From assembly GCA_964355945.1 (NCBI GenBank), contig CAYHGE010000001.1, positions 48,259-112,258 on the forward strand: a DNA stretch of 64,000 nt. The letters are read 5' to 3'. Position 1 is the stretch's first letter. Each line of letters starts with the position of its first letter. Source of the DNA: an uncultured Draconibacterium sp. (lineage in GTDB: Bacteria; Bacteroidota; Bacteroidia; Bacteroidales; FEN-979). The position numbers and the translations under genes were made by a program. Positions 21,986 through 39,088 of the stretch are shown one piece after another. The notes beneath the pieces are model-generated. The model did not search any database. It was not told the origin of the DNA and was given only the letters and a program-made list of their open reading frames with translations.

Positions 21986-22588
21986 ATGTATATACTCTGC
22001 TCTGATCTCGAAGGTGTTTTTGTTCCTGAAGTATGGATCAATGTAGCCGATAAAACCGGTATAAATGAACTCCGCCGCACCACCCGCGACGAACCCGATT
22101 ACAATCTGCTGATGCGAAGCAGGATGAAAATTCTGGACCAGCATGGTTTGAAGCTTCACGACATTCAGAATGTTATTGCCCAAATCAGGCCCTTGCCCGG
22201 TGCAAATGAGTTCATTGAATGGGTGAAGGAACGCACGCAATTGATCGTGGTATCCGACACTTTTATTCAGTTTGCTGATCCCCTGATGAAACAACTGGGC
22301 CGCCCGACCCTGTTCTGCCACACACTCGTCATGGACGAAACAAACCGGATCATCGATTACAAGCTCAGACAGCCTGATCCGAAACGTAAAACTGTTGAAG
22401 CATTGCAGGGACTGACATACCAGGTAATCGCAATGGGCGATTCCTATAACGACATCAGCATGCTCAAACAGGCTGATGTCGGAATTCTTTTCCGGCCACC
22501 GCAGAATGTGGTCGATGATTACCCGGAGTTTCCTGTGGTCACGGAGTACAACGAGGTAAAGACGATTCTGGAACGTATTCTACTTTAA
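21986..22588 (+). CDS. thrH: Bifunctional phosphoserine phosphatase / homoserine phosphotransferase (HAD family)
   Basis: DLEGV..PE.W, TTRDEPDY..LM, SDTF..FA.PLM.QLG.PTLFCH, GDSYND. Alternative start at 21968. Confidence 0.92.
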   Translation: MYILCSDLEGVFVPEVWINVADKTGINELRRTTRDEPDYNLLMRSRMKILDQHGLKLHDIQNVIAQIRPLPGANEFIEWVKERTQLIVVSDTFIQFADPLMKQLGRPTLFCHTLVMDETNRIIDYKLRQPDPKRKTVEALQGLTYQVIAMGDSYNDISMLKQADVGILFRPPQNVVDDYPEFPVVTEYNEVKTILERILL

Positions 22589-25500
22589 AACAACCTTCAC
22601 CATCCGGGTCTCATTTCCTGTGATTACCCTGACAAGGTAAACCCCTTTGGGATGCAATGCCAGTGACAGTTCGTAACTCTTCTGCGGAGGGTATTTTTCG
22701 CTGAGGATTTTATCACCCATCATCCCATAAACTTCAACTGTTGCTGAAGAAATTTCCTGCTGATTTGTCAACTCAAGAAAAATCGATCCTGTTGTTGGAT
22801 TCGGGTATGCCCGCAGGGTTTTTCCGATCGATACCTCTGTGAATGTGTTTTCTGGTTCAGTCTCAGTCCCTGTCATCACAGGAAGGCGGGGACAGAACTG
22901 GCCTGTTGTGCTGATATAGCCATGCATATAGCATCCGGCAATGGCTGAAGTGCCTGGCATATAAATGATCTTTTGGCCGGCGATCATTGTTGCACTGGCA
23001 CCTGGATTCACGGTAAAGGTTGTGCCGCTACCCGCAACCACAATTACATTGTTGGCATCATAGCACAGGATCTGCCCGGCTGTGACACTGATGTTTTGCA
23101 AGTAGAGTGTATCAACGATCCAGGAAGTGATTTCGAATGCCAGGTCGGTGTATTTTACCATCGATCCGGGTGTTGGCCAGGTTATGGTTTGCCACACACC
23201 GGTTCCATTGGTTGCAGCTCCGCACAAAATAGGGTAAAACCAGCGGTTTGCCTCCTGCCAGCGCCATGAAGGCGGATTCACCGGATTATTTGACATCGCC
23301 TGCACCGAGAACCAGTATGTTGTATCCTTTACCTGGATAAATGGCTCCGGAAGCAGGAAGTCATATTTATAGATTGGTGACCCTTCATTGTTTATCAAAC
23401 CAGTGTTGATCTCCAGCAGTGGGTTAAACGGGACAATATAACTCTTGATTGGATTGGCAGGCAGGCAATTGGAATTGGCGTAAATCTTCAAGATGAAATG
23501 ATTAATTCCTGCTCCCCTTTTTTCCAATCCCTGGGCGCTCATTTCATAATTACCCCACCAGTGCAGGTCGGTTACAACCTCACCATTGCATTTCCAGTCA
23601 TCGGCAAGTAAGCTCATGTCAGTTGCATGCAGGCCCGGGAAAAGCGGGTCGGCTGGCTGGCTCCATTTTAAATCTCCATACACAGTTGTCAGGATTTTGT
23701 AATCTTCCACTTCACCATCAGAGGCTGGTCCGGTGTAGGAGAGTGCAGGTTGATGGCTGAAACGGCACCGGGCATAAGTTGAACCTGCAACCACATTTCC
23801 AGGGGTAATGAAGGTGAGGTAATTATCCCCAGCTACCAGGTTTATATCCATGAATACCTGTTCATTGGCATCTGCCCAATCTCCATCGGCATTAAAATCG
23901 ATCCAGCAGTTGAACAGTGCATTTCCAACTGAAGCAGTTACTTTAATCTTACATGGATTTCCCTTCGCAACAGGCCACATGAATACAACCCCGTCCTCAT
24001 CGTCAAGGTTGGCAATGTCATCACCATCAGCTGCAAGGGTTTGTTGACCATCCGGTTCACCATCTATCTGTAAACCCAGGTATGTGATTCCATCAATGAT
24101 GTGGCTTGCCCCGCCATTTACATTCAGGGTCGGATAGGTAGGATCGGGAGCGTCACCCCAGTCCAATTGATCTGGTTGTGGTTCAATATTTACCGCATAA
24201 TCCTCTACTTCGCCATTTGGTGCCGGCCCCAGGAATCCCAGCCCCTGCAGCGTGCAAAACCTGAACCTCGCAAATTTGGAACCGACGGTAGTGTTTCCAG
24301 GTACATTAAATGTCAGCATGTTAGGCCCGGGAATAAGCATTACATCAATAAAGACCTGGTCGCCCGGGTCAGCCCATGATCCATTACCGTTAAAGTCTAC
24401 CCAAACATTCAGGAACCCCTGCACCGAAGCCAATACATTGAGACTCGCCGGTTGATTTGGGATCCATGGATTCATGAAAAACACACCATCTTCATCATCA
24501 TTGGGGGGAGGAAACATGATGTCCATGTCATCACCCAATGCCATGGGGTCGGGCTGCCCGTCGGGTTCACCATCAACCTGGGGGCCGAGGTAGGTTACCT
24601 GGTCAATTGTATGTCGCGCACCATTGCTGGCAAGTAAGGTCGGATATAGCGGATCCGGAGCGTCACCGAAATCCAGTTCAGGTTGTGGTGCCAGCTCAAT
24701 CATGACCTGGTAATCTTCAACCTCGCCATTGGGAGCATAACCGAAAAACTGCAGGCCACCTTGTCCGCTCACTCTGAACCTGGCAAATGTGACAAATGGC
24801 ATGGCGTTGGCAGGTACCAGGAAGGATAAAAGGTTCATGCCCCCTGTTAATGGAACACTAACAAAAATTTGTTCACCCGGATCAGCCCAGGCATTCATCT
24901 TGTTAAAATCGACCCATGCATCCAGAATACATGGCATATTTACCATAACCTGCACGGTGGCAAGTTGCCCGGGAGTGAGCAAACTGGTAAACATGACTCC
25001 GTCTTCGTCGTCACCAATTGCCGGGTTAATGTCATCCCCGGTTGCAGTGCCGTTTGGCTGGCCGTTAAATTCAACATCAATCAATGGTCCAAGGCTCAGC
25101 CCCGTATTGGTATGCCTTGCACCATTCGATGCCATCAATGTCGGGTATGGGCCGTCAGGTGCATCACCAAAGTCCATGGTGGCAACGACGAAACTTTGCA
25201 TGGTAGCCTTGATATCGGGTCTTGGGCCTATATTGCCCACAGGGGGAGTTATCTGTGCCGTGCCATAGGTGGCCAGCCAGGTACGCATATTAGCTGGCGT
25301 AGGCGGGGTGGCCGATACATTCGCAAAGTAATACCCTTCAACACAGGCAAGAGCACCTGCCACGATGGGTGAAGCACTCGAAGTTCCATTGAAATCAGCC
25401 CTGTAATAGTAATTAGGTCCTTGGGCGTTGTAATATGTTCCGTACCCGGTGGTGAAGACATTTTCACCCCATCCTTGTAAATCAAACCGTGGTCCGTAAC

Positions 25501-26644
25501 TGGAAAACGAGAGCCGCTGCAGATTCCCTTCAATATATGTACCACCTGTATAGACTCCGCCAGCTCCGACAATGATTGCTCCCGAATTTCCATACCATGC
25601 CATGTTCCCGGTGTTGATGTTGCCATTTCCTCCTGCCTCTACCACATGAATTCCGTTGGCTATGGCATTAACAATGGCAGCATACACCGCGTTGTTGGTC
25701 TGGGCATTTGGGGTAGTATTGGTGTACCATTCCAATGGCACATATCCTCCTGATCCGGTATAGTCCCATTGCTGCTCCAGGAGTATTACATCCCCGGCAT
25801 AAAGGCTTGAAATTGCATAGTATATGGCGCCTGCCGGATTCCATGTGCCTCCCCAGTAAGTGCCGCAGGTTTTCAAACCTGCTCCATAACAGATACCTGT
25901 GGTTCCCCATCCGTTGTTGTCAGATACCAGTTCCCCAAGAACTGCCGTACCATGATTGTTGTCATTGAACGGATCGGTGATGGTATTCGGGTTTATTTGT
26001 GATCCGAGCGCTTTGGTAATATCAGCATGGTTGTAATTCCAGCTGTACTCCACATCGCAAATGGTAACACCGGTTCCTGTTCCCCCTGTTTGTGTCCATG
26101 CATAGAGCGCATCAACACCGGTTGGATTATTTGCGGCAGGATTCAGATAGCCTTGCTGGGACTGGTAATTTCCGGGGTTCGGCAATGGCACTGGTTTCGG
26201 AACAGGTTTTGCGAGGTAAATCCCTGGCAGGGCCTCAAGCCTTTCAGCGATCTTCCAGGTGTCATTTCCTTTTGGAATCTTTAACCGGTAGATGTTATTC
26301 AGATTATAAATGTCTTCGCCTGTGTTGCGTTCACCGTTTGTTTCCCAGTTATCGATTGTTGTTTCCGGCAAATCGGTCAGTCGCTGCCATGTGTGCCACT
26401 GCAATTCATTCAGGATATCATCAACCCCGAGCAATGCCCGTGTTGTGAGATCCGTTAAATTTCCGTTACGAATCCTCACTTTTGATTCACCTGAGAACAT
26501 CACCTCTATCCATTCCTCTTCGAATGCATAAGGATAATTGCTGTACGGTTTTGAGTTTTTTTCCGGATTCTGTGAAAATGATTCTGAAATTGCGTATCCA
26601 CAAAAGAAAAAACCCAGGACTGAAAGTAAAAAGATCTTTTTCAT
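22580..26644 (-). CDS. S8 subtilase with three GEVED domains and T9SS type A sorting domain
   Basis: Signal peptide; catalytic triad DVEYSW / HGTAVLG / GTSSASP; three D(F/W)GDAP...GEVEDY repeats; C-terminal YPNP...GVYLV...KVVLK. Confidence 0.9.
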   Translation of the reverse strand: MKKIFLLSVLGFFFCGYAISESFSQNPEKNSKPYSNYPYAFEEEWIEVMFSGESKVRIRNGNLTDLTTRALLGVDDILNELQWHTWQRLTDLPETTIDNWETNGERNTGEDIYNLNNIYRLKIPKGNDTWKIAERLEALPGIYLAKPVPKPVPLPNPGNYQSQQGYLNPAANNPTGVDALYAWTQTGGTGTGVTICDVEYSWNYNHADITKALGSQINPNTITDPFNDNNHGTAVLGELVSDNNGWGTTGICYGAGLKTCGTYWGGTWNPAGAIYYAISSLYAGDVILLEQQWDYTGSGGYVPLEWYTNTTPNAQTNNAVYAAIVNAIANGIHVVEAGGNGNINTGNMAWYGNSGAIIVGAGGVYTGGTYIEGNLQRLSFSSYGPRFDLQGWGENVFTTGYGTYYNAQGPNYYYRADFNGTSSASPIVAGALACVEGYYFANVSATPPTPANMRTWLATYGTAQITPPVGNIGPRPDIKATMQSFVVATMDFGDAPDGPYPTLMASNGARHTNTGLSLGPLIDVEFNGQPNGTATGDDINPAIGDDEDGVMFTSLLTPGQLATVQVMVNMPCILDAWVDFNKMNAWADPGEQIFVSVPLTGGMNLLSFLVPANAMPFVTFARFRVSGQGGLQFFGYAPNGEVEDYQVMIELAPQPELDFGDAPDPLYPTLLASNGARHTIDQVTYLGPQVDGEPDGQPDPMALGDDMDIMFPPPNDDEDGVFFMNPWIPNQPASLNVLASVQGFLNVWVDFNGNGSWADPGDQVFIDVMLIPGPNMLTFNVPGNTTVGSKFARFRFCTLQGLGFLGPAPNGEVEDYAVNIEPQPDQLDWGDAPDPTYPTLNVNGGASHIIDGITYLGLQIDGEPDGQQTLAADGDDIANLDDEDGVVFMWPVAKGNPCKIKVTASVGNALFNCWIDFNADGDWADANEQVFMDINLVAGDNYLTFITPGNVVAGSTYARCRFSHQPALSYTGPASDGEVEDYKILTTVYGDLKWSQPADPLFPGLHATDMSLLADDWKCNGEVVTDLHWWGNYEMSAQGLEKRGAGINHFILKIYANSNCLPANPIKSYIVPFNPLLEINTGLINNEGSPIYKYDFLLPEPFIQVKDTTYWFSVQAMSNNPVNPPSWRWQEANRWFYPILCGAATNGTGVWQTITWPTPGSMVKYTDLAFEITSWIVDTLYLQNISVTAGQILCYDANNVIVVAGSGTTFTVNPGASATMIAGQKIIYMPGTSAIAGCYMHGYISTTGQFCPRLPVMTGTETEPENTFTEVSIGKTLRAYPNPTTGSIFLELTNQQEISSATVEVYGMMGDKILSEKYPPQKSYELSLALHPKGVYLVRVITGNETRMVKVVLK
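23695..25177 (-). repeat. Three tandem GEVED-domain coding repeats (about 500 bp each)
   Basis: Repeated DFGDAP..YPTL...GA.H, DDEDGV, W.DFN, ARFR and GEVEDY blocks; boundaries approximate. Confidence 0.85.
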
Positions 26645-32058: not shown

Positions 32059-32066
32059 CAAAAGTA
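32059..32066 (-). promoter_or_regulatory. -7 promoter element (TACTTTTG) for gcvP
   Basis: TAnnTTTG match 32 nt before the ATG. Confidence 0.55.
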
Positions 32067-32130: not shown

Positions 32131-32135
32131 CCATG

Positions 32136-32168
32136 AAAAAACGCCGCCCCTGCAAGGAACGGCGTTTT
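32136..32168 (-). terminator. Rho-independent terminator of the PKD/T9SS gene
   Basis: Minus strand AAAACGCCG-N13-CGGCGTTTTTT, 21 nt after the stop at 32190. Confidence 0.8.
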
Positions 32169-32189
32169 CAAAATGATTACTGAACAGAT

Positions 32190-34424
32190 CTATTTTGTCT
32201 TAACAAGTTTGGTGGTTAAAATCACACCGTTTTGGGTGAAAATCCGCAAGGTGTAGATGCCATCAGGCAGAGAGGCTACGCTCACTTTAACAGTGTTATT
32301 GCCTGCTGTAAGAGTTATCTGACTGCTCTCAACCAGTTGCCCTGTAAGATTATAAACTGAAATTCCGGCTTTAGTTCCTTGTTTCATGTCAATGTTTACC
32401 GTCAGATTGTCAATAACAGGATTCGGGTAAGCAATCCACTGGTTTGCAAGAGTGACCTCATCCCGGGTTCCCTGAATGGTATTCCCGCTGAAGGTCATCA
32501 CCACATCGATGTGAGGATTTTCCGGTGTAAGTATGATCTTAACCATGTCACTTGTAACACCGGGCATTTCAGCATGCAGGAAATAGGTTCCGTAGGCAAG
32601 GGTTGGAAAACTGAAGGCACCGGCACCGGTAACCCGGGTAAAACCAATTGCATTGCCCTGCTCATTCAGCAGGATCATATTGATCTTATCCATCATCGAG
32701 CTGTACATATCACCCAGGTTGATCTGGCCATTGGTTGACCCCGGGCCGGGAGTCATCTGGTCAGATGGAACAAGGCTAATGTTGTAAGGATTGTTTTCTG
32801 CTCCCAGGTTTATAAGTGTCGCTTGCTCCCAGCTGATGGTGTTGCCGTAATAGGTTGGCAGATATCCGTTTGAATCAAAGGGAATCGCCATGATGTAATA
32901 GTTGCCGTCAGGGACCAGTGTGAAATAGTAAACCCCGTTTGAATCTATCGGGCATACCGCAACAAATGGCTGGTAGTTAGCATTTGTGTCAACAGAGAAG
33001 ATCATCGCCATTCCGAGTGGAAGAGGGAAATTGCCTTCAAATACCTGTCCGTAAATCTGATGATAATTGACACTGTCCTGGATGACAACAATCTGACAGA
33101 AAGTACTTGTACAGTTATTCCCTGCGATGGTGAGGCATACATTATATGAACCGGGTGACGTGTAATTGTGAATTGGGTTTTGCATTGTTCCTGATGTGCC
33201 GTCACCAAAACTCCATAACCATGATGTCGGATTTCCGGTGGAAAGGTCAGTAAAGGAAACCGTGCTATACCCGGAGGCGGGAGCAGTGGCATACGAGAAA
33301 TAGGCCTGGCAACCACCGCCTGAGCCAACGGTAACCGTATCTGAAGTAACATCATAGCATGTTTGGTTCGGGCTTCCGATGGTAAGGGTCACCTGGTAGT
33401 AGCCACTTGTTGCATAGGTATGTACAGGATTCTGCTCAAAAGAGGAGTTGCCGTCTCCGAAATTCCAGTTCCAGGATGCGATATTACCGGTCGACAGGTC
33501 GATGAAGTGAAGGGTGTTGCCTGAATTCAGCGAATCACCATAATAGGTAAAGGCCGCATGACAGGCAGGTGGTCCACCAACTGCAAGGGTGTCGCAGGTC
33601 ATGTCGTAGCAGGTGCTGTCTGCTCCCTGGATGGTCAGGCAGACCCCGTAGATGCCTGATTGAGCATAGGTGTGTATGGGATTTTGCAGATTGGAGGTCA
33701 TTCCATCACCGAAATTCCATGTCCAGGAAACAATATTTCCTGCTGACTGATCGATGAAATGATAGGTGTTAAGTGTGTTTGAGCTGTCAGGAACTATGGT
33801 AAATGCAGCCTGACAATCACCGCCATTGATGGAATCCCAGGCATAAACTGTTTGGGTAATGGTGTTGTAGCATGTCGTTCCAAGTGCCCCTATGGTAAGA
33901 GACACGTCATAATAACCAGCCTGAGTGTACGTATGAACCGGATTTATCGAATTCGAATAGGTTCCGTCGCCAAATGACCATTGGCGGATATCGAATCCTC
34001 CCACTGAGAAGTCATAGAAATTAAAAACAAGAGGCTGCTGCTGTTGGCTTGTGAATGCAGCCTGACAGGGATTGTTATTATAACAGATTGCAAATATAGC
34101 TGTAAAGCTGGTATTGGCCGGGCTATAAACGAATGATTGTATGTTAAGATAATTCTGACAATCAACAGTCCCAACATATAGATTTCCCTGGGTTCCGCCA
34201 TTTTGAATGATGATTGTATCAGAGTAAAAACCGCTGTTGTTGGTATAAACAGTGTGATAAAAATACCATCCTGCATTAGAATCGTTGTGTATGATTACGG
34301 CCTGATTTGGTATCGGATTGCCGTTAGACAGGTCCGTAACTGTTCCGTTGACAAGCAAAAATCCTTGAGACATGGCTGGAATCACCAGCAGCAGAAACAA
34401 AATCGGAAGAAGTAGTTTTTTCAT
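32190..34424 (-). CDS. Secreted PKD-repeat protein with T9SS type A sorting domain
   Basis: Signal peptide; four C.A.F...F.D.S...W.FGDG....NP.H.Y...G.Y.V.LTI repeats; carboxypeptidase-regulatory-like beta domains; YPNP...GIYTL...KLVK. No catalytic domain recognised. Confidence 0.9.
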   Translation of the reverse strand: MKKLLLPILFLLLVIPAMSQGFLLVNGTVTDLSNGNPIPNQAVIIHNDSNAGWYFYHTVYTNNSGFYSDTIIIQNGGTQGNLYVGTVDCQNYLNIQSFVYSPANTSFTAIFAICYNNNPCQAAFTSQQQQPLVFNFYDFSVGGFDIRQWSFGDGTYSNSINPVHTYTQAGYYDVSLTIGALGTTCYNTITQTVYAWDSINGGDCQAAFTIVPDSSNTLNTYHFIDQSAGNIVSWTWNFGDGMTSNLQNPIHTYAQSGIYGVCLTIQGADSTCYDMTCDTLAVGGPPACHAAFTYYGDSLNSGNTLHFIDLSTGNIASWNWNFGDGNSSFEQNPVHTYATSGYYQVTLTIGSPNQTCYDVTSDTVTVGSGGGCQAYFSYATAPASGYSTVSFTDLSTGNPTSWLWSFGDGTSGTMQNPIHNYTSPGSYNVCLTIAGNNCTSTFCQIVVIQDSVNYHQIYGQVFEGNFPLPLGMAMIFSVDTNANYQPFVAVCPIDSNGVYYFTLVPDGNYYIMAIPFDSNGYLPTYYGNTISWEQATLINLGAENNPYNISLVPSDQMTPGPGSTNGQINLGDMYSSMMDKINMILLNEQGNAIGFTRVTGAGAFSFPTLAYGTYFLHAEMPGVTSDMVKIILTPENPHIDVVMTFSGNTIQGTRDEVTLANQWIAYPNPVIDNLTVNIDMKQGTKAGISVYNLTGQLVESSQITLTAGNNTVKVSVASLPDGIYTLRIFTQNGVILTTKLVKTK

Positions 34425-34502
34425 GGTAAATTTGTTTTAATGGTTTGTGTATTTATTGAGTTGTGATTTTTTAAGAACCTGGTTCCGGAGGTTTATGATG
34501 TT

Positions 34503-34530
34503 ATAACCCGACAGAAGAAAAAGGTTGCCT
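34503..34530 (-). promoter_or_regulatory. Putative ECF sigma promoter AGGCAACCTTT-N12-GTTAT upstream of the PKD gene
   Basis: Identical 11-nt -35 block and 5-nt -10 block, with the same spacing as the motif at 36573-36600. Confidence 0.7.
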
Positions 34531-34549
34531 GTGCCCCGGGACCTTTATT

Positions 34550-35977
34550 TCAAAAATGGATGACAAAAGCTGCGCGAACCCCTGCAGACCATGGTTTAGT
34601 ATTGTTAACCGGTTTTTCGTAAACAGAATTAAAATAGTACCTGACATTTGGCTCGAGTTCAAAAAACAACGCCTCCGACAATTTAAAAGCGGTGTTGATG
34701 CCTCCCATTACCTGCCAGTTCAGGCTTACCTGCTCCGGGGCAATGTCATTCACACTGATAATGCGTTTTGTCCCGGGATCATATTCGTCAGAGAGTTGCT
34801 TTGAAACCAGCAGGACTGACAACACCGGTCCCACCCTGAACCCCATTGAAATCCGCTCTGTTTGCCAGAAATCATATCCTATGATCATTGGGATCTGAAG
34901 GTACGTGTAGCGTTTTACCACTTTGGCATAATCGAGTTTCATCAGGCTGTCCCATACATCCTTTTTTGACAGGTACATACTCGGTACGTAACTATGTGTT
35001 GGATCATCCCATTTGAAATTCATGGAATCCAGGTGGTTATAGGCACCCAGGAAATCATTGTACTCCACCACAACTTCATTGGTCCCTTTGCCAATTGACA
35101 CCCCTGCACCGGTACGTATTGAAAATTTCCCGAAATGAAATGTTCCCTCAACTCCGAAATTGTTCACAAATTTTGTGCCTTCCAGGGTGTTAAACATCCA
35201 CTCAGGAGTGTAATAAACGCCAATGGCAGGGATCCATTTACTGCTGTTTCCGGCTGCTTCGGAAGATTTATTTTTAATCGCTGGAGCAGGAATTTGGACA
35301 GAGTCGCTTGTTTGTGGCAAGGTTGAATCAGGAGCAGACACATCAGGCATTATCACAGAGGCAGGTAAGTTGATCTCTGCTTCCATTGTGCTATCGGGTT
35401 TTTTAACATCGTTCCCCGGAGTTGAAACATTGCCTGGATTTGCAACGGCAAGCCCCCCCCCAGAAATTGCTGACAAAGAAGATGATTTTGTCATCTCATT
35501 TTTCTTATCGGGCATTATCGGATTGGCTGACGGCTTTTGTTTTTCTGAGTTTTTCCCAAAGGCAGGGACTGGGTTCGAAAACTGCGTTGACTCACCTGTA
35601 ACAGGCTGTTGGTTTGATATGGGTACAGAAGAATTAAGGGTCTTGTTTTGTTTGGAGATACCAGTGGATTGGGTTTGGTTTAATGGGTGATGCGTATTCA
35701 GCCCTGCTGAATGAACTTGCCTGGTAGCAGGAGTTACTTTCTTACCGGCATTTGAAGAGAACTTTTCTGAAGTGATGGCCCATATCAATAATCCTGCACT
35801 GATAAGAACAAAAATACCAGAGAGCAGGATCAGGCCTGTTCTTCCCTTCTTCTCAGGTTGCGAAATCTGCATCGCATCCTGCAGGAAAGCCTTTTTGGCT
35901 GCCTCAGAGGGCTTCATCTGATGATCTTTCAGGGTCTCCCTGAAGAGATCATCGATCGGATGATTATACTTTTTCAT
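34550..35977 (-). CDS. Putative dual-membrane-spanning anti-sigma factor: N-terminal cytoplasmic segment, TM helix, disordered linker, C-terminal PorT-like beta-barrel
   Basis: aa1-47 IDDLFRETL..H..KPS; TM aa48-68; S/T/P/N/Q/K-rich linker of about 175 aa; amphipathic strands (YTYLQIP, GFRVGP, ELEPNVRYY); terminal Phe. Overlaps the ECF sigma stop by 14 bp. Confidence 0.75.
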   Translation of the reverse strand: MKKYNHPIDDLFRETLKDHQMKPSEAAKKAFLQDAMQISQPEKKGRTGLILLSGIFVLISAGLLIWAITSEKFSSNAGKKVTPATRQVHSAGLNTHHPLNQTQSTGISKQNKTLNSSVPISNQQPVTGESTQFSNPVPAFGKNSEKQKPSANPIMPDKKNEMTKSSSLSAISGGGLAVANPGNVSTPGNDVKKPDSTMEAEINLPASVIMPDVSAPDSTLPQTSDSVQIPAPAIKNKSSEAAGNSSKWIPAIGVYYTPEWMFNTLEGTKFVNNFGVEGTFHFGKFSIRTGAGVSIGKGTNEVVVEYNDFLGAYNHLDSMNFKWDDPTHSYVPSMYLSKKDVWDSLMKLDYAKVVKRYTYLQIPMIIGYDFWQTERISMGFRVGPVLSVLLVSKQLSDEYDPGTKRIISVNDIAPEQVSLNWQVMGGINTAFKLSEALFFELEPNVRYYFNSVYEKPVNNTKPWSAGVRAAFVIHF

Positions 35978-36548
35978 AGGTCGGTGATGGTTTAATGTTG
36001 ACCAGCTGATCCATTTTTTTTCTTAATAAAGCGCGGGCTTTTGAAAGCTGCGATTTGGATGTGTTTTCTGAGCATAAGAGCATTTCGGCAATCTCCTTGT
36101 GCCCGTATTGTTCAAAAACGAAGAGGTTGAAAACGGTCCGGTACCCGGCCGGCAGTTCACAGATCAACTGCATAATCTGCTCCTTGTCGATATTAAGATA
36201 TACCTCTTCCGGATCTGCCTCTTCTTCGTTGTGAAGATCGATTTTATCCAGGATCGGGTCAATGTCAATGAAATATTTCTCTTTCTGGCGGCTGCGTAAA
36301 AAGTTCAACGCAGTATTGACCATGATCCTTCTCATCCAGGCTTCCAGGCTTCCATCGGAACGGATTCTGAACGTGTGGATTTTCTGGATGATTTTAATAA
36401 ACCCGTCGTGAAGAATGTCTTCCGCATCATTCCTGTTCCCTGAATAGCGGAAACAGACGCTCAACATTGAAGGTGCATGGCTGTCATACAACGCTTCAAT
36501 GGCGCCTGCATCCCTGGTTATCGCTTTTTTTATAAGATGTTCCTCCAC
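35964..36548 (-). CDS. ECF (sigma-70 group 4) RNA polymerase sigma factor
   Basis: DAEDILHDGFIKI, W.RRI.VNTALN (region 2); LPAGYRTVFNL...GHKEIA......NTSKSQLSKAR (region 4); GTG start. Confidence 0.95.
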   Translation of the reverse strand: MEEHLIKKAITRDAGAIEALYDSHAPSMLSVCFRYSGNRNDAEDILHDGFIKIIQKIHTFRIRSDGSLEAWMRRIMVNTALNFLRSRQKEKYFIDIDPILDKIDLHNEEEADPEEVYLNIDKEQIMQLICELPAGYRTVFNLFVFEQYGHKEIAEMLLCSENTSKSQLSKARALLRKKMDQLVNIKPSPTYEKV

Positions 36549-36572
36549 GGGTTTACTCTATCCTGCATAAAG

Positions 36573-36600
36573 ATAACACAACACTATCCAAAGGTTGCCT
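36573..36600 (-). promoter_or_regulatory. Putative autoregulatory ECF promoter AGGCAACCTTT-N12-GTTAT
   Basis: Lies between the hppA terminator and the sigma start; duplicated at 34503-34530. Confidence 0.7.
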
Positions 36601-36610
36601 TAAAAATATG

Positions 36611-36652
36611 AAAAAAAGAGGCTGCCAGAAATATTCCGACAGCCTCTATTTT
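36611..36652 (-). terminator. Rho-independent terminator of hppA
   Basis: Minus strand AGAGGCTGTCGGAA..TTCTGGCAGCCTCT followed by a T-run. Confidence 0.8.
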
Positions 36653-36667: not shown

Positions 36668-39088
36668 TTAATCTTTAATACGCATTTTGTAAAATGAACG
36701 GTAAACAAAATATAAAGCAACCGCAAAAAATGCCATTCCGATATAATGGGCGAATGGCCTGAAGTGAACGGACAGGGCTATTTCCATAGCCAGCAATCCA
36801 AACAGGGTGGTGAATTTAATAATGGGATTCATAGCAACGGATGAAGTATCTTTAAAAGGATCACCTACTGTATCGCCCACAACGGATGCAGCATGGAGAT
36901 CAGTGCCTTTTTCCTTCATATCCACTTCAATCACCTTTTTTGCATTGTCCCACGCACCGCCCGCATTGGCCATGAAAATTGCCTGGTACAAACCAAAGAA
37001 TGCAATGGAAATCAGGTAACTTACGAAAAGCGAAACCGGTAAAGCGTAGTTTAGTTTTTCAGCACCGGTCATCGATTCAGTCAAACCGGTAGGAGAGGAT
37101 AAAAATGCAAAGGCCAGCGCAAAAGAGAAAATGGCGATGAAGATATTCAACATCCCTTTTTGGGCATAAACCGTGCAAATTTTTACAACTTCTTTCGATT
37201 TGGCTGTATCTGCTTTTTTCGGGGCATTCGGATCGAGGTTGATGTTTTCCTTGATATAGGCTACTGCCCGGCTTGCACCTGTTGTTACCGCCTGAATTGA
37301 AGCTCCGCTAAACCAGTAGATTACCGCTCCACCTAAAAGGAATCCTAAAATTGTATATGGATTAAGGAGGTTAAGGATCTGTTCAGGTTCGATACCCAGC
37401 GATTTTTTAATAACCAGGATCAGTGAAAAAATCATCGTGGTGGCACCTACAACTGCGGTGCCAATCAACACCGGTTTGGCAGTGGCTTTAAAGGTGTTTC
37501 CTGCACCATCATTGGCCTCAAGATAATGTTTGGATTTTGCGAAATCAGGTTTAAAACCAAAATCGCGTTCAATTTCAGCGGAAATACCGGGAATTTCTTC
37601 AATCAGCGAAAGCTCATAAATGGATTGGGCATTGTCGGTTACAGGGCCATAGCTGTCAACCGCAATGGTAACAGGACCCATGCCCAGCATACCAAAAGCC
37701 ACAAGGCCGAAGGCAAAGATCGATGGATAGATCATCACATTGCTGAGTCCGAAATTGCTTGCATAATAGGCAACAAACATAAGCAGGAAAAAGACCATTC
37801 CCTGCCAGAAAGCGCTGAAATTTCCGGCAACAAGCCCGGAAAGGATGTTGAGAGAAGCGCCGCCTTCCTGTGATGCAACCACAACTTCGTTCACATGCGT
37901 CGATTTCGGACTGGTGAAAAGTTTTGTAAACTCAGGGATCAGGGCGGCTCCTAATGTTCCTGCACTGATGATTACTGACAAAGTTATCCATAAATCATTC
38001 GCCAGGTCGCCTATGGTCAGGTAACTGATCACAAATGTTACAACGATAGAAAGGATTGAGGTTATCCATACCAGTGAGGTCAGAGGTTTCTCAAAATCAA
38101 GGTCGTCAGCATTGCTGTACTTGGCTTTGCTGATGGCTCCATTGATCCAGAAAGCCACGATGGAGGTGATGATCATGAAAATTCTCATTACGAAGATCCA
38201 GGTGAGCAACTGAACCTGAAGTACAGGGTCGGCAACTGCGAGAACGATGAAAGAAATCAATGCAACGCCGGTTACACCATAAGTTTCAAAACCGTCAGCC
38301 GTCGGGCCAACACTGTCGCCGGCATTATCGCCAACACAGTCGGCAATGGTTCCCGGATTTCTGGGGTCATCTTCACCGATTTTAAAGATCACCTTCATCA
38401 GGTCAGATCCAATGTCGGCAATTTTGGTAAAAATACCTCCCGCAATTCTCAACGCGGAAGCGCCCAGCGATTCGCCAATTGCAAATCCGATAAAGCTTGC
38501 ACCTGCATATTCTCCTGGAACAAACATCAGGATGACCAGCATCATAATCAGTTCCAGGGAGATAAGGACAACACCGATACTCATTCCTGCATTCAGCGGG
38601 ATATTGAGCAACTTGATAGGTTTCCTTTCCAGAGAAGCAAATGCCATCCGGGCATTGGCGAGCGTATTCATCCTGATTCCAAACCATGCAACGCTGTATG
38701 AACCAAGGATGCCAATAATGGTCCATCCCAGGATCATTAAAACACCACCGATTCCAAAACTGGCATCCGAGAGCCATCCGAAATAAAATGCCACGGCAGA
38801 ACCGATAAAAACAAAAAGAATTACTAAAAATTTCCCCTGCTGAATGAGATAGGTTTTTGAGGTTTCAAAAATCACTTGTGCAACATCCAGCATGGACTTA
38901 TGTGCACCGATTTTTTTTACTTTAAGAAATTGGTACAACCCGAACATAAAACCTGCCAGTGTGATCAAAAATCCCCAGTAAAGGATAGATTGATTTCGTA
39001 TATCTGCAGGAATTACAAGGTTTGCCTCGCCAGCCATTGTCAGAAATGGCAATAGCAAAGCCGTGAAAAAGGTAATGGCTCTTTTCAT
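36668..39088 (-). CDS. hppA: Membrane-bound cation-translocating pyrophosphatase (long, divergent type)
   Basis: GGIFTKIADIGSDL, EDDPRNP..IADCVGDNAGD, DSYGPVTDNA, GNTFKA, GGAWDNAKK, GDTVGDPFKDT; 806 aa. Confidence 0.95.
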   Translation of the reverse strand: MKRAITFFTALLLPFLTMAGEANLVIPADIRNQSILYWGFLITLAGFMFGLYQFLKVKKIGAHKSMLDVAQVIFETSKTYLIQQGKFLVILFVFIGSAVAFYFGWLSDASFGIGGVLMILGWTIIGILGSYSVAWFGIRMNTLANARMAFASLERKPIKLLNIPLNAGMSIGVVLISLELIMMLVILMFVPGEYAGASFIGFAIGESLGASALRIAGGIFTKIADIGSDLMKVIFKIGEDDPRNPGTIADCVGDNAGDSVGPTADGFETYGVTGVALISFIVLAVADPVLQVQLLTWIFVMRIFMIITSIVAFWINGAISKAKYSNADDLDFEKPLTSLVWITSILSIVVTFVISYLTIGDLANDLWITLSVIISAGTLGAALIPEFTKLFTSPKSTHVNEVVVASQEGGASLNILSGLVAGNFSAFWQGMVFFLLMFVAYYASNFGLSNVMIYPSIFAFGLVAFGMLGMGPVTIAVDSYGPVTDNAQSIYELSLIEEIPGISAEIERDFGFKPDFAKSKHYLEANDGAGNTFKATAKPVLIGTAVVGATTMIFSLILVIKKSLGIEPEQILNLLNPYTILGFLLGGAVIYWFSGASIQAVTTGASRAVAYIKENINLDPNAPKKADTAKSKEVVKICTVYAQKGMLNIFIAIFSFALAFAFLSSPTGLTESMTGAEKLNYALPVSLFVSYLISIAFFGLYQAIFMANAGGAWDNAKKVIEVDMKEKGTDLHAASVVGDTVGDPFKDTSSVAMNPIIKFTTLFGLLAMEIALSVHFRPFAHYIGMAFFAVALYFVYRSFYKMRIKD

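Follow-up and report, generated by a model that had tools for sequence, protein, structure and literature searches.

A 64,000-nt stretch of contig CAYHGE010000001.1 from an uncultured Draconibacterium sp., here called the window, carries on its minus strand a three-gene cassette that encodes SigA, an extracytoplasmic function (ECF) sigma factor, a Dma-type anti-sigma factor and a protein with PKD repeats that is predicted to be secreted through a type IX secretion system (T9SS). Two sites, P1 before the sigma gene and P2 before the PKD gene, are very probably the cognate promoters of SigA, which would be held inactive by the anti-sigma factor until a signal arrives at the outer membrane and would then drive its own operon and the single PKD gene. 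A first-pass annotation of the window had proposed autoregulation together with direct control of the PKD gene, and did not mention the anti-sigma gene that lies between the two sites; conservation, fixed spacing, position and coupling to the sigma lineage, all read from sequence, support both forms of control.

The two strings that had been reported at 36600-36573 and 34530-34503 of the minus strand are present there. The pattern GCAACC-N15-GTTAT, which was picked after the sites had been seen, has 2 exact matches in the window against 0.03 expected, a number that none of 100 shuffles reached. The longer pattern GCAACCTTT-N12-GTTAT has 2 matches in the 3.7-Mb genome and 0 at the 12 other spacings tried. 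Bacteroidota use TAnnTTTG as a housekeeping promoter box; as had been noted, this box is absent from both intergenic regions, and we found it before the next gene, gcvP. The blocks at P1 and P2 are identical in this genome, as first described, but this is not a general rule: only 2 of 27 genomes, namely this one and a relative, have the exact blocks at both sites. What is conserved is RGGCAACCWTT-N10-G(T/G)GTTA, in which the -10 box begins two bases earlier than first drawn and the final T of the earlier version is variable.

A search of 61 genomes found an anti-sigma match in 41, and conservation was assessed at the loci of the 30 best matches. Upstream of the sigma gene, the motif is present in all 29 loci that have sequence there, and it follows the anti-sigma stop codon within 200 nt in 28 of 30 loci and within 260 nt in 29. 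The missing P1 of G004 and P2 of G033 were found on other contigs, filling both gaps; G033 has a transposase-like stretch (identified by eye) upstream, and P2 remains with the PKD gene. Four further genomes have both sites, so that the motif stands upstream of the orthologues, as expected of the promoters first proposed, in 34 of 34 genomes of the genus with the cassette; 19 further loci were kept out of these counts as possibly coming from the same genomes. Across 57 sites, GCAACC or a one-base variant was always present, the distance from it to GTT was always 15 nt, and the -10 box was GTGTTA or GGGTTA in 50, with GTGTTA preferred at P1 (23/29) and GGGTTA at P2 (22/28). Pairwise identity between genomes was 0.90-0.94 for the boxes versus 0.34-0.39 for the spacer, and the P1 and P2 spacers within one genome had an identity of 0.26.

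In some genomes, parts of the cassette were not seen. No SigA-type anti-sigma match was obtained in G006 (81% complete), G022 or G036, and the latter two also gave no SigA orthologue or hppA match, a pattern in which loss and an assembly gap are indistinguishable. G008 has a PKD gene with no visible P2 or SigA; both contigs run into repeats and stop shortly before the positions expected for them, which makes this genome uninformative. Tandem repeats of 6-20 nt expand upstream of promoters and in PKD leaders (L031:6960-7125; gaps in L005, L018, L022 and L028), leave the motif intact and often coincide with contig ends.

We asked which sigma factor reads these sites. The genome contains 11 matches to SigA, and contig C14 carries a paralogous unit (L031:1907-6930) composed of sigB, a second Dma gene (dmaB), a second PKD cargo gene (pkdB) that overlaps the dmaB stop codon, sigC and the gene for a small anti-sigma factor, anti-sigma C. 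If P1 and P2 were read mainly by another GCAAC-type ECF sigma factor, such as SigB, the cassette would be the downstream tier of a cascade and not autoregulated. The number of SigA matches speaks for this, as do the -35 box common to both paralogues, the similarity of their region 4.2 (ENTSKSQL in SigA, ENTSKTQL in SigB) and the SigB-type sites before many genes for secreted proteins in relatives. We nevertheless regard it as improbable. The site upstream of sigB is GCAACY-N16-GTCT, here and in 20 of 20 relatives fetched, with a (C/T)GTCT -10 box; in this genome it reads GCAACT-N15-CGTCT, the canonical ECF21 type. In a quick tree of 82 sigma factors, N15-GTT preceded 36 of 36 members of the SigA clade and N16-GTCT 21 of 21 of SigB (support 91 and 99), and the 16 SigC sigma factors had neither promoter type; these labels came from a regular expression that missed a visible GTCT before the distant L055 and L056 and mislabelled L060. 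No A- or B-type site was seen before sigC. Cross-scores had medians of about 1 and -11 bits, compared with about 31 and 28 on own models (which include training sites), and the SigB model gave P1 and P2 a median of about 1 bit against 27.7 on its own promoters. At the A-type spacing, GTCT did not exceed background (7 matches in 40 genomes), and the genome that keeps SigB without SigA (G036) has no A-type site. This evidence, mainly the tracking of sigma clade by promoter type and the cross-scores, is correlative and points to SigA, not its paralogue, as the reader of P1 and P2. A two-residue loop insertion in SigA does not by itself account for the -10 switch, since 3 SigA-clade proteins without it keep GTT.

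SigB-type sites were also seen away from the paralogous unit. Across 40 genomes of the genus, RGGCAACYW-N14-YGTCT had 89 matches versus 19 in controls. All 20 off-locus sites fetched, which were hand-picked and not random, were intergenic, most of them before signal-peptide proteins, several with T9SS-like tails (sites checked: G000:C44:6216-6243, G000:C49:13312-13339 and L107-L126). Judging from these sites, SigB or a similar ECF sigma factor may run a broad cargo regulon, unlike SigA. A third PKD/T9SS gene replaces sigC and the anti-sigma C gene in 4 of 20 paralogous loci (L032-L034 and L042). Locus L055 of G041, from another family, holds a sigma gene, a Dma-like gene and two T9SS-tail genes, with ATGCAACCATTTT...TCTTGTCTTA before the sigma gene and twice before the second cargo gene, the same logic with a canonical -10 box.

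The motif might instead be an operator for a transcription factor other than a sigma factor, or an RNA element, with both genes transcribed by the housekeeping sigma factor. Candidate start sites (about 36568 for P1, from a conserved A, and 34499 or 34496 for P2) are inferred from sequence, and the PKD leader contains a further element with partial conservation, CCGGR (21 of 29 loci; window 34470-34485, minus strand; often CCGGAACCAGGTTC); both points leave room for this explanation. We consider it very improbable, as the motif is asymmetric, always on the coding strand and made of two boxes at a fixed distance, and begins, in 22 of 29 loci, 53 nt ahead of where the sigma start codon ends. Of 29 loci, 1 has TAnnTTTG near P1 and 3 have it in the gap between the anti-sigma and PKD genes, and the -35 box is the one predicted for ECF21 in the literature. 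A chance match or a passive, functionless relic of local duplication, for which one could cite the rarity of exact block identity and the lack of genome-wide enrichment of the short pattern, is largely refuted and deserves next to no credence, because the boxes are conserved whereas spacers and flanks have diverged, between genomes and between P1 and P2, and because conservation holds across sigma factors down to 52-59% identity.

The shared motif had further been taken to define a candidate regulon. The two sites do fit cognate ECF promoters, but pattern and matrix scans of the genome found no set beyond P1 and P2. GCAACC-N15-GTTAT, proposed for such a scan, was not enriched (5 matches at N15 versus 1-9 at other spacings). 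With a matrix built from 55 sites of relatives, this genome excluded, P1 scored 36.2, P2 34.7 and the next site 20.8. All 16 other matches scoring at least 12 lie inside long open reading frames (ORFs), and 10 column-permuted matrices gave no match of 24 or above. Among 2,249 ORFs of at least 200 codons, a length that the sigma gene does not reach, the PKD gene alone had an upstream score of at least 12. In 40 genomes of the genus, 63 of 67 pattern matches were at the cassette and 4 elsewhere (reversed control, 9), and 150 other genomes of the order yielded one match, inside an ORF. The genome encodes at least 150 T9SS sorting domains, and SprA, the T9SS core component searched for, was found; one of the at least 150 T9SS-cargo genes has the site. 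On these counts, we take the regulon to be the sigma/anti-sigma pair and one cargo gene; a local regulon of this kind has been described (PMC7776599).

Several points weigh against the reading of the sites as cognate promoters. The 34 genomes are all kin of one genus, which means that the counts do not represent independent events; since P1 and P2 are both within the cassette, their co-occurrence with the sigma gene is partly linkage. P2 is not universal, because in G039, from another family, the PKD gene follows 33 nt after the anti-sigma gene with no P2 (best score, -14.7); the gene order there is as in this cassette, and a P1-like site scores 19.3. At two divergent second copies of the cassette, the P2-like sites are weaker (12.3 and 17.0). 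The -10 box, G(T/G)GTTA, is not the CGTCT given in the accessible ECF21 entry, and no single sigma residue cleanly explains the switch. Further targets may be missing from the assembly, which is 89% complete. Neither start nor strand nor level can be read from the metatranscriptome contigs of 4 runs; they cover parts of hppA and of the sigma, anti-sigma and PKD genes, none among the pieces listed bridges P1 or P2, and the coverage of the anti-sigma gene is thin and was not used as evidence.

In the divergent second cassette copies of G021 and G002 (L061 and L062), the sigma factors carry SRSQ in region 4.2, not SKSQ, and both of their promoters have a base other than C as the sixth of GCAACC; these are two related sequences only.

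Table 1. Features of the cassette and its surroundings (window coordinates).
Feature	Position	Strand	Remarks
hppA, membrane H+-pyrophosphatase	36668..39088	-	PF03030; upstream neighbour, outside the module
Intrinsic terminator of hppA, insulating the cassette	36610..36647	-	14-bp stem and T run, -22.4 kcal/mol
P1, predicted ECF promoter	36574..36600	-	-35 GGCAACCTTT 36599-36590, 10-nt spacer, -10 GTGTTA 36579-36574
SigA, ECF sigma factor, ECF21-like	35964..36548	-	194 aa, GTG start; PF04542, PF08281 and TIGR02937 above cut-off
Dma-type anti-sigma factor	34550..35977	-	475 aa; PF13568 at 25.9 bits, slightly below the cut-off of 27
P2, predicted ECF promoter	34504..34530	-	-35 GGCAACCTTT 34529-34520, 10-nt spacer, -10 GGGTTA 34509-34504
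T9SS type A cargo protein with PKD repeats	32190..34424	-	744 aa; PF18911 (four copies), PF13620, PF18962, TIGR04183
Intrinsic terminator closing the cassette	32135..32169	-	3' of the PKD gene; -21.7 kcal/mol hairpin, then T run
Housekeeping-type -7 box of gcvP	32059..32066	-	TACTTTTG; outside the module

On the minus strand the order is hppA, terminator, P1, sigA, the anti-sigma gene, P2, the PKD cargo gene, terminator and gcvP, and the anti-sigma gene overlaps the sigma stop codon by 14 nt (Table 1). In two relatives without the cassette (G032 and G017), hppA is directly followed by gcvP, which argues that the cassette, with its three genes and two sites, is either there as a whole or missing as a whole. 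In the gap between hppA and P1, 21 of 22 loci have a hairpin below -10 kcal/mol, but only 1 of 29 loci has a hairpin before P2, and the anti-sigma/PKD gap of this locus has no terminator before P2. This distribution indicates that SigA is insulated from hppA and that P1 can serve the cargo gene too; the PKD gene is probably transcribed by read-through from P1 as well. The sigma-70 consensus scan is ill-suited to Bacteroidota and was used for terminators only, of which it missed the one that closes the cassette. Elsewhere in the window (22580-26644, minus strand) lies a gene for a T9SS-type protein of 1354 aa, in which a subtilase domain, three GEVED domains and DUF7901 were recognised.

SigA has sigma-70 regions 2 and 4 only, as is characteristic of ECF sigma factors. 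In the AlphaFold model, the anti-sigma factor has helices at residues 7-36, a transmembrane (TM) helix at about 47-68, a disordered tether at about 75-245 and a predicted eight-stranded barrel at 249-474 with a long conserved hairpin (about 297-358). The single TM helix is read from hydropathy. The tether, rich in S, P, N and K, has a pLDDT below 50 over most of its length and varies from 118 to 214 aa in 115 homologues; identity is 0.60 in the helical residues 1-36 versus 0.10 in the tether. The barrel strands are modelled with high confidence, their number was counted by eye, and the top Foldseek matches are OmpA, NspA and Ail. The anti-sigma factor is predicted to span both membranes. Its orthologue is split by a stop codon or frameshift in G031 and G035 (L015 and L063), either an assembly error or a truncated sensor.

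The cargo protein comprises a signal peptide, a carboxypeptidase-regulatory-like domain, four PKD repeats, two beta-sandwiches (455-553 and 558-652) and a C-terminal sorting domain. Its N terminus is hydrophobic, and TIGR04183 scores 45.2 bits against a cut-off of 23, which, with SprA present in the genome, places it among T9SS type A proteins. The model is all-beta, and the number of PKD repeats varies. No catalytic family was found in the cargo by domain profiles, model or fold search, and a fold search with the whole protein returned generic Ig-like chains only, such as GhpA; the cargo most likely acts at the surface, either like an adhesin or as a structural protein. The periplasmic part of anti-sigma C (L031:1907-2482) is homologous to cargo domain 455-553 in a profile comparison (96%, E 4e-9; 21% only with a single sequence).

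We base a model on these observations: the motif, which is conserved and constant in its spacing, the order of the genes, the hairpins on either side, the domain families and the absence of further strong sites. Binding of SigA to the sites, its sequestration by the N-terminal helices, the two-membrane topology and release by proteolysis are drawn from ECF biology and from work on Dma1 and Reo. By analogy, the N terminus of the anti-sigma factor would hold SigA at the inner membrane, and a signal at the barrel, most likely a surface or outer-membrane perturbation, would lead to processing of the anti-sigma factor, as proposed for Dma1. Free SigA would fire P1, yielding more SigA in a positive feedback and, through the overlapping gene, more inhibitor as its own brake. 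It would also fire P2, giving a separate and probably higher output of cargo on top of read-through from P1. The GTTA of the -10 box and a spacer one base shorter than that of the GTCT type of SigB would keep the paralogues from cross-firing despite their common -35 box.

It is conceivable, though in our view unlikely, that the secreted PKD protein is itself the ligand of the barrel, so that the cassette would form a closed loop monitoring the arrival of its product at the cell surface or its departure from there. Cofolding of the barrel (245-475) with the mature cargo (21-744) gave 0.55 versus 0.00 for the best control, with at least 58% of contacts common between runs and a partner pLDDT of at least 74. 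This weakly favours the idea: 116 of 157 solved complexes attained the mark applied, as did 2 of 215 mismatches, but only 18 of the 157 did so with 0.60 or less, and so did both mismatches. That a related PKD cargo gene comes after each of the two Dma paralogues was counted in its favour, and the conserved barrel hairpin and the recurrence of a cargo domain in the periplasmic part of a third anti-sigma factor lend it support. The weak cofold signal, the repeated pairing of Dma and cargo genes and the precedent of PorA discussed below give it some probability. Under such an arrangement, differences in -10 box and spacer length would prevent crosstalk between paralogous loops.

Outside gut Bacteroides, little is known of the signals, promoters and targets of Dma/ECF21 systems. 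Our analysis suggests that T9SS cargo is an output, and possibly also the input, of Dma signalling in free-living Bacteroidales. The locus offers a sharply defined promoter with a one-gene output that could be used as a clean reporter, and a natural pair of paralogues with a common -35 box but different -10 boxes and spacers makes promoter insulation among ECF21-like sigma factors directly testable. If the cargo does prove to be the ligand, it would be a first candidate signal for a Dma sensor, and the cassette would report from within on T9SS export or on damage to the surface.

The architecture and the -35 box are already known, and an autoregulated ECF promoter is ordinary. For the -10 variant, the insulation of paralogues and the T9SS cargo target, a non-exhaustive search found no published account, and the supplements of the Dma and EcfO papers may define promoters; no literature joining an ECF sigma factor, an anti-sigma factor, a PKD domain and type IX secretion was found. 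The accessible ECF21 entry (supplement of PMC7826278; Casas-Pastor et al. 2021) gives GCAACC as the -35 element, CGTCT as the most common -10 element and a +1 anti-sigma factor with one TM helix and a barrel. The present system shares the Bacteroidetes host, the +1 anti-sigma factor with one TM helix and an outer-membrane barrel (both predicted here) and the -35 GCAACC. It differs in its -10 box, which also lies one base closer to the -35 box than the GTCT of the sister paralogue, and in its PKD/T9SS cargo, which is not in the ECF21 neighbourhoods that the entry lists. As the -10 box departs from the published consensus, we file SigA as ECF21-like and not as a formal member.

The Das1/Dma1 and Das2/Dma2 systems of Bacteroides thetaiotaomicron resemble it in layout: their anti-sigma factors have the same predicted arrangement of cytoplasmic N terminus, TM helix, disordered tether and eight-stranded barrel with PF13568, form an operon with the sigma gene and go with a very small regulon. 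The first 40 residues of Dma1 mediate its binding to Das1, and Dma1 undergoes processing (PMC10927553); the Das1 regulon has three strongly induced genes, the reported targets being NigD lipoproteins and BT_1287, with a vesiculation phenotype (PMC10927553 and PMC13088901); the accessible text of these two papers defines no promoter motif. Here the single target is instead a T9SS type A cargo with PKD repeats, and the term Dma-type refers to layout, not to sequence orthology with Dma1. For EcfO/Reo, studied in Bacteroides fragilis and Phocaeicola vulgatus (PMC9308784 and PMC13114119), expression of the sigma gene rises too, as P1 would lead one to expect: envelope stress induces the related sigma factor of P. 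vulgatus 33-fold, and the regulon is likewise small, at about 15 genes (PMC9308784). The targets are nigD and lipopolysaccharide (LPS) genes in gut species, and T9SS cargo is not mentioned in the accessible portions of these reports. PorA of Porphyromonas gingivalis, a T9SS protein bearing a C-terminal domain (CTD) that signals to an ECF sigma factor through PorXY-SigP (PMC7712824), differs in acting through a two-component system that controls T9SS machinery genes and not through a barrel-bearing anti-sigma factor that controls one cargo; as a T9SS protein in signalling to an ECF sigma factor, it provides a precedent for a secreted cargo as the ligand of its own sensor.

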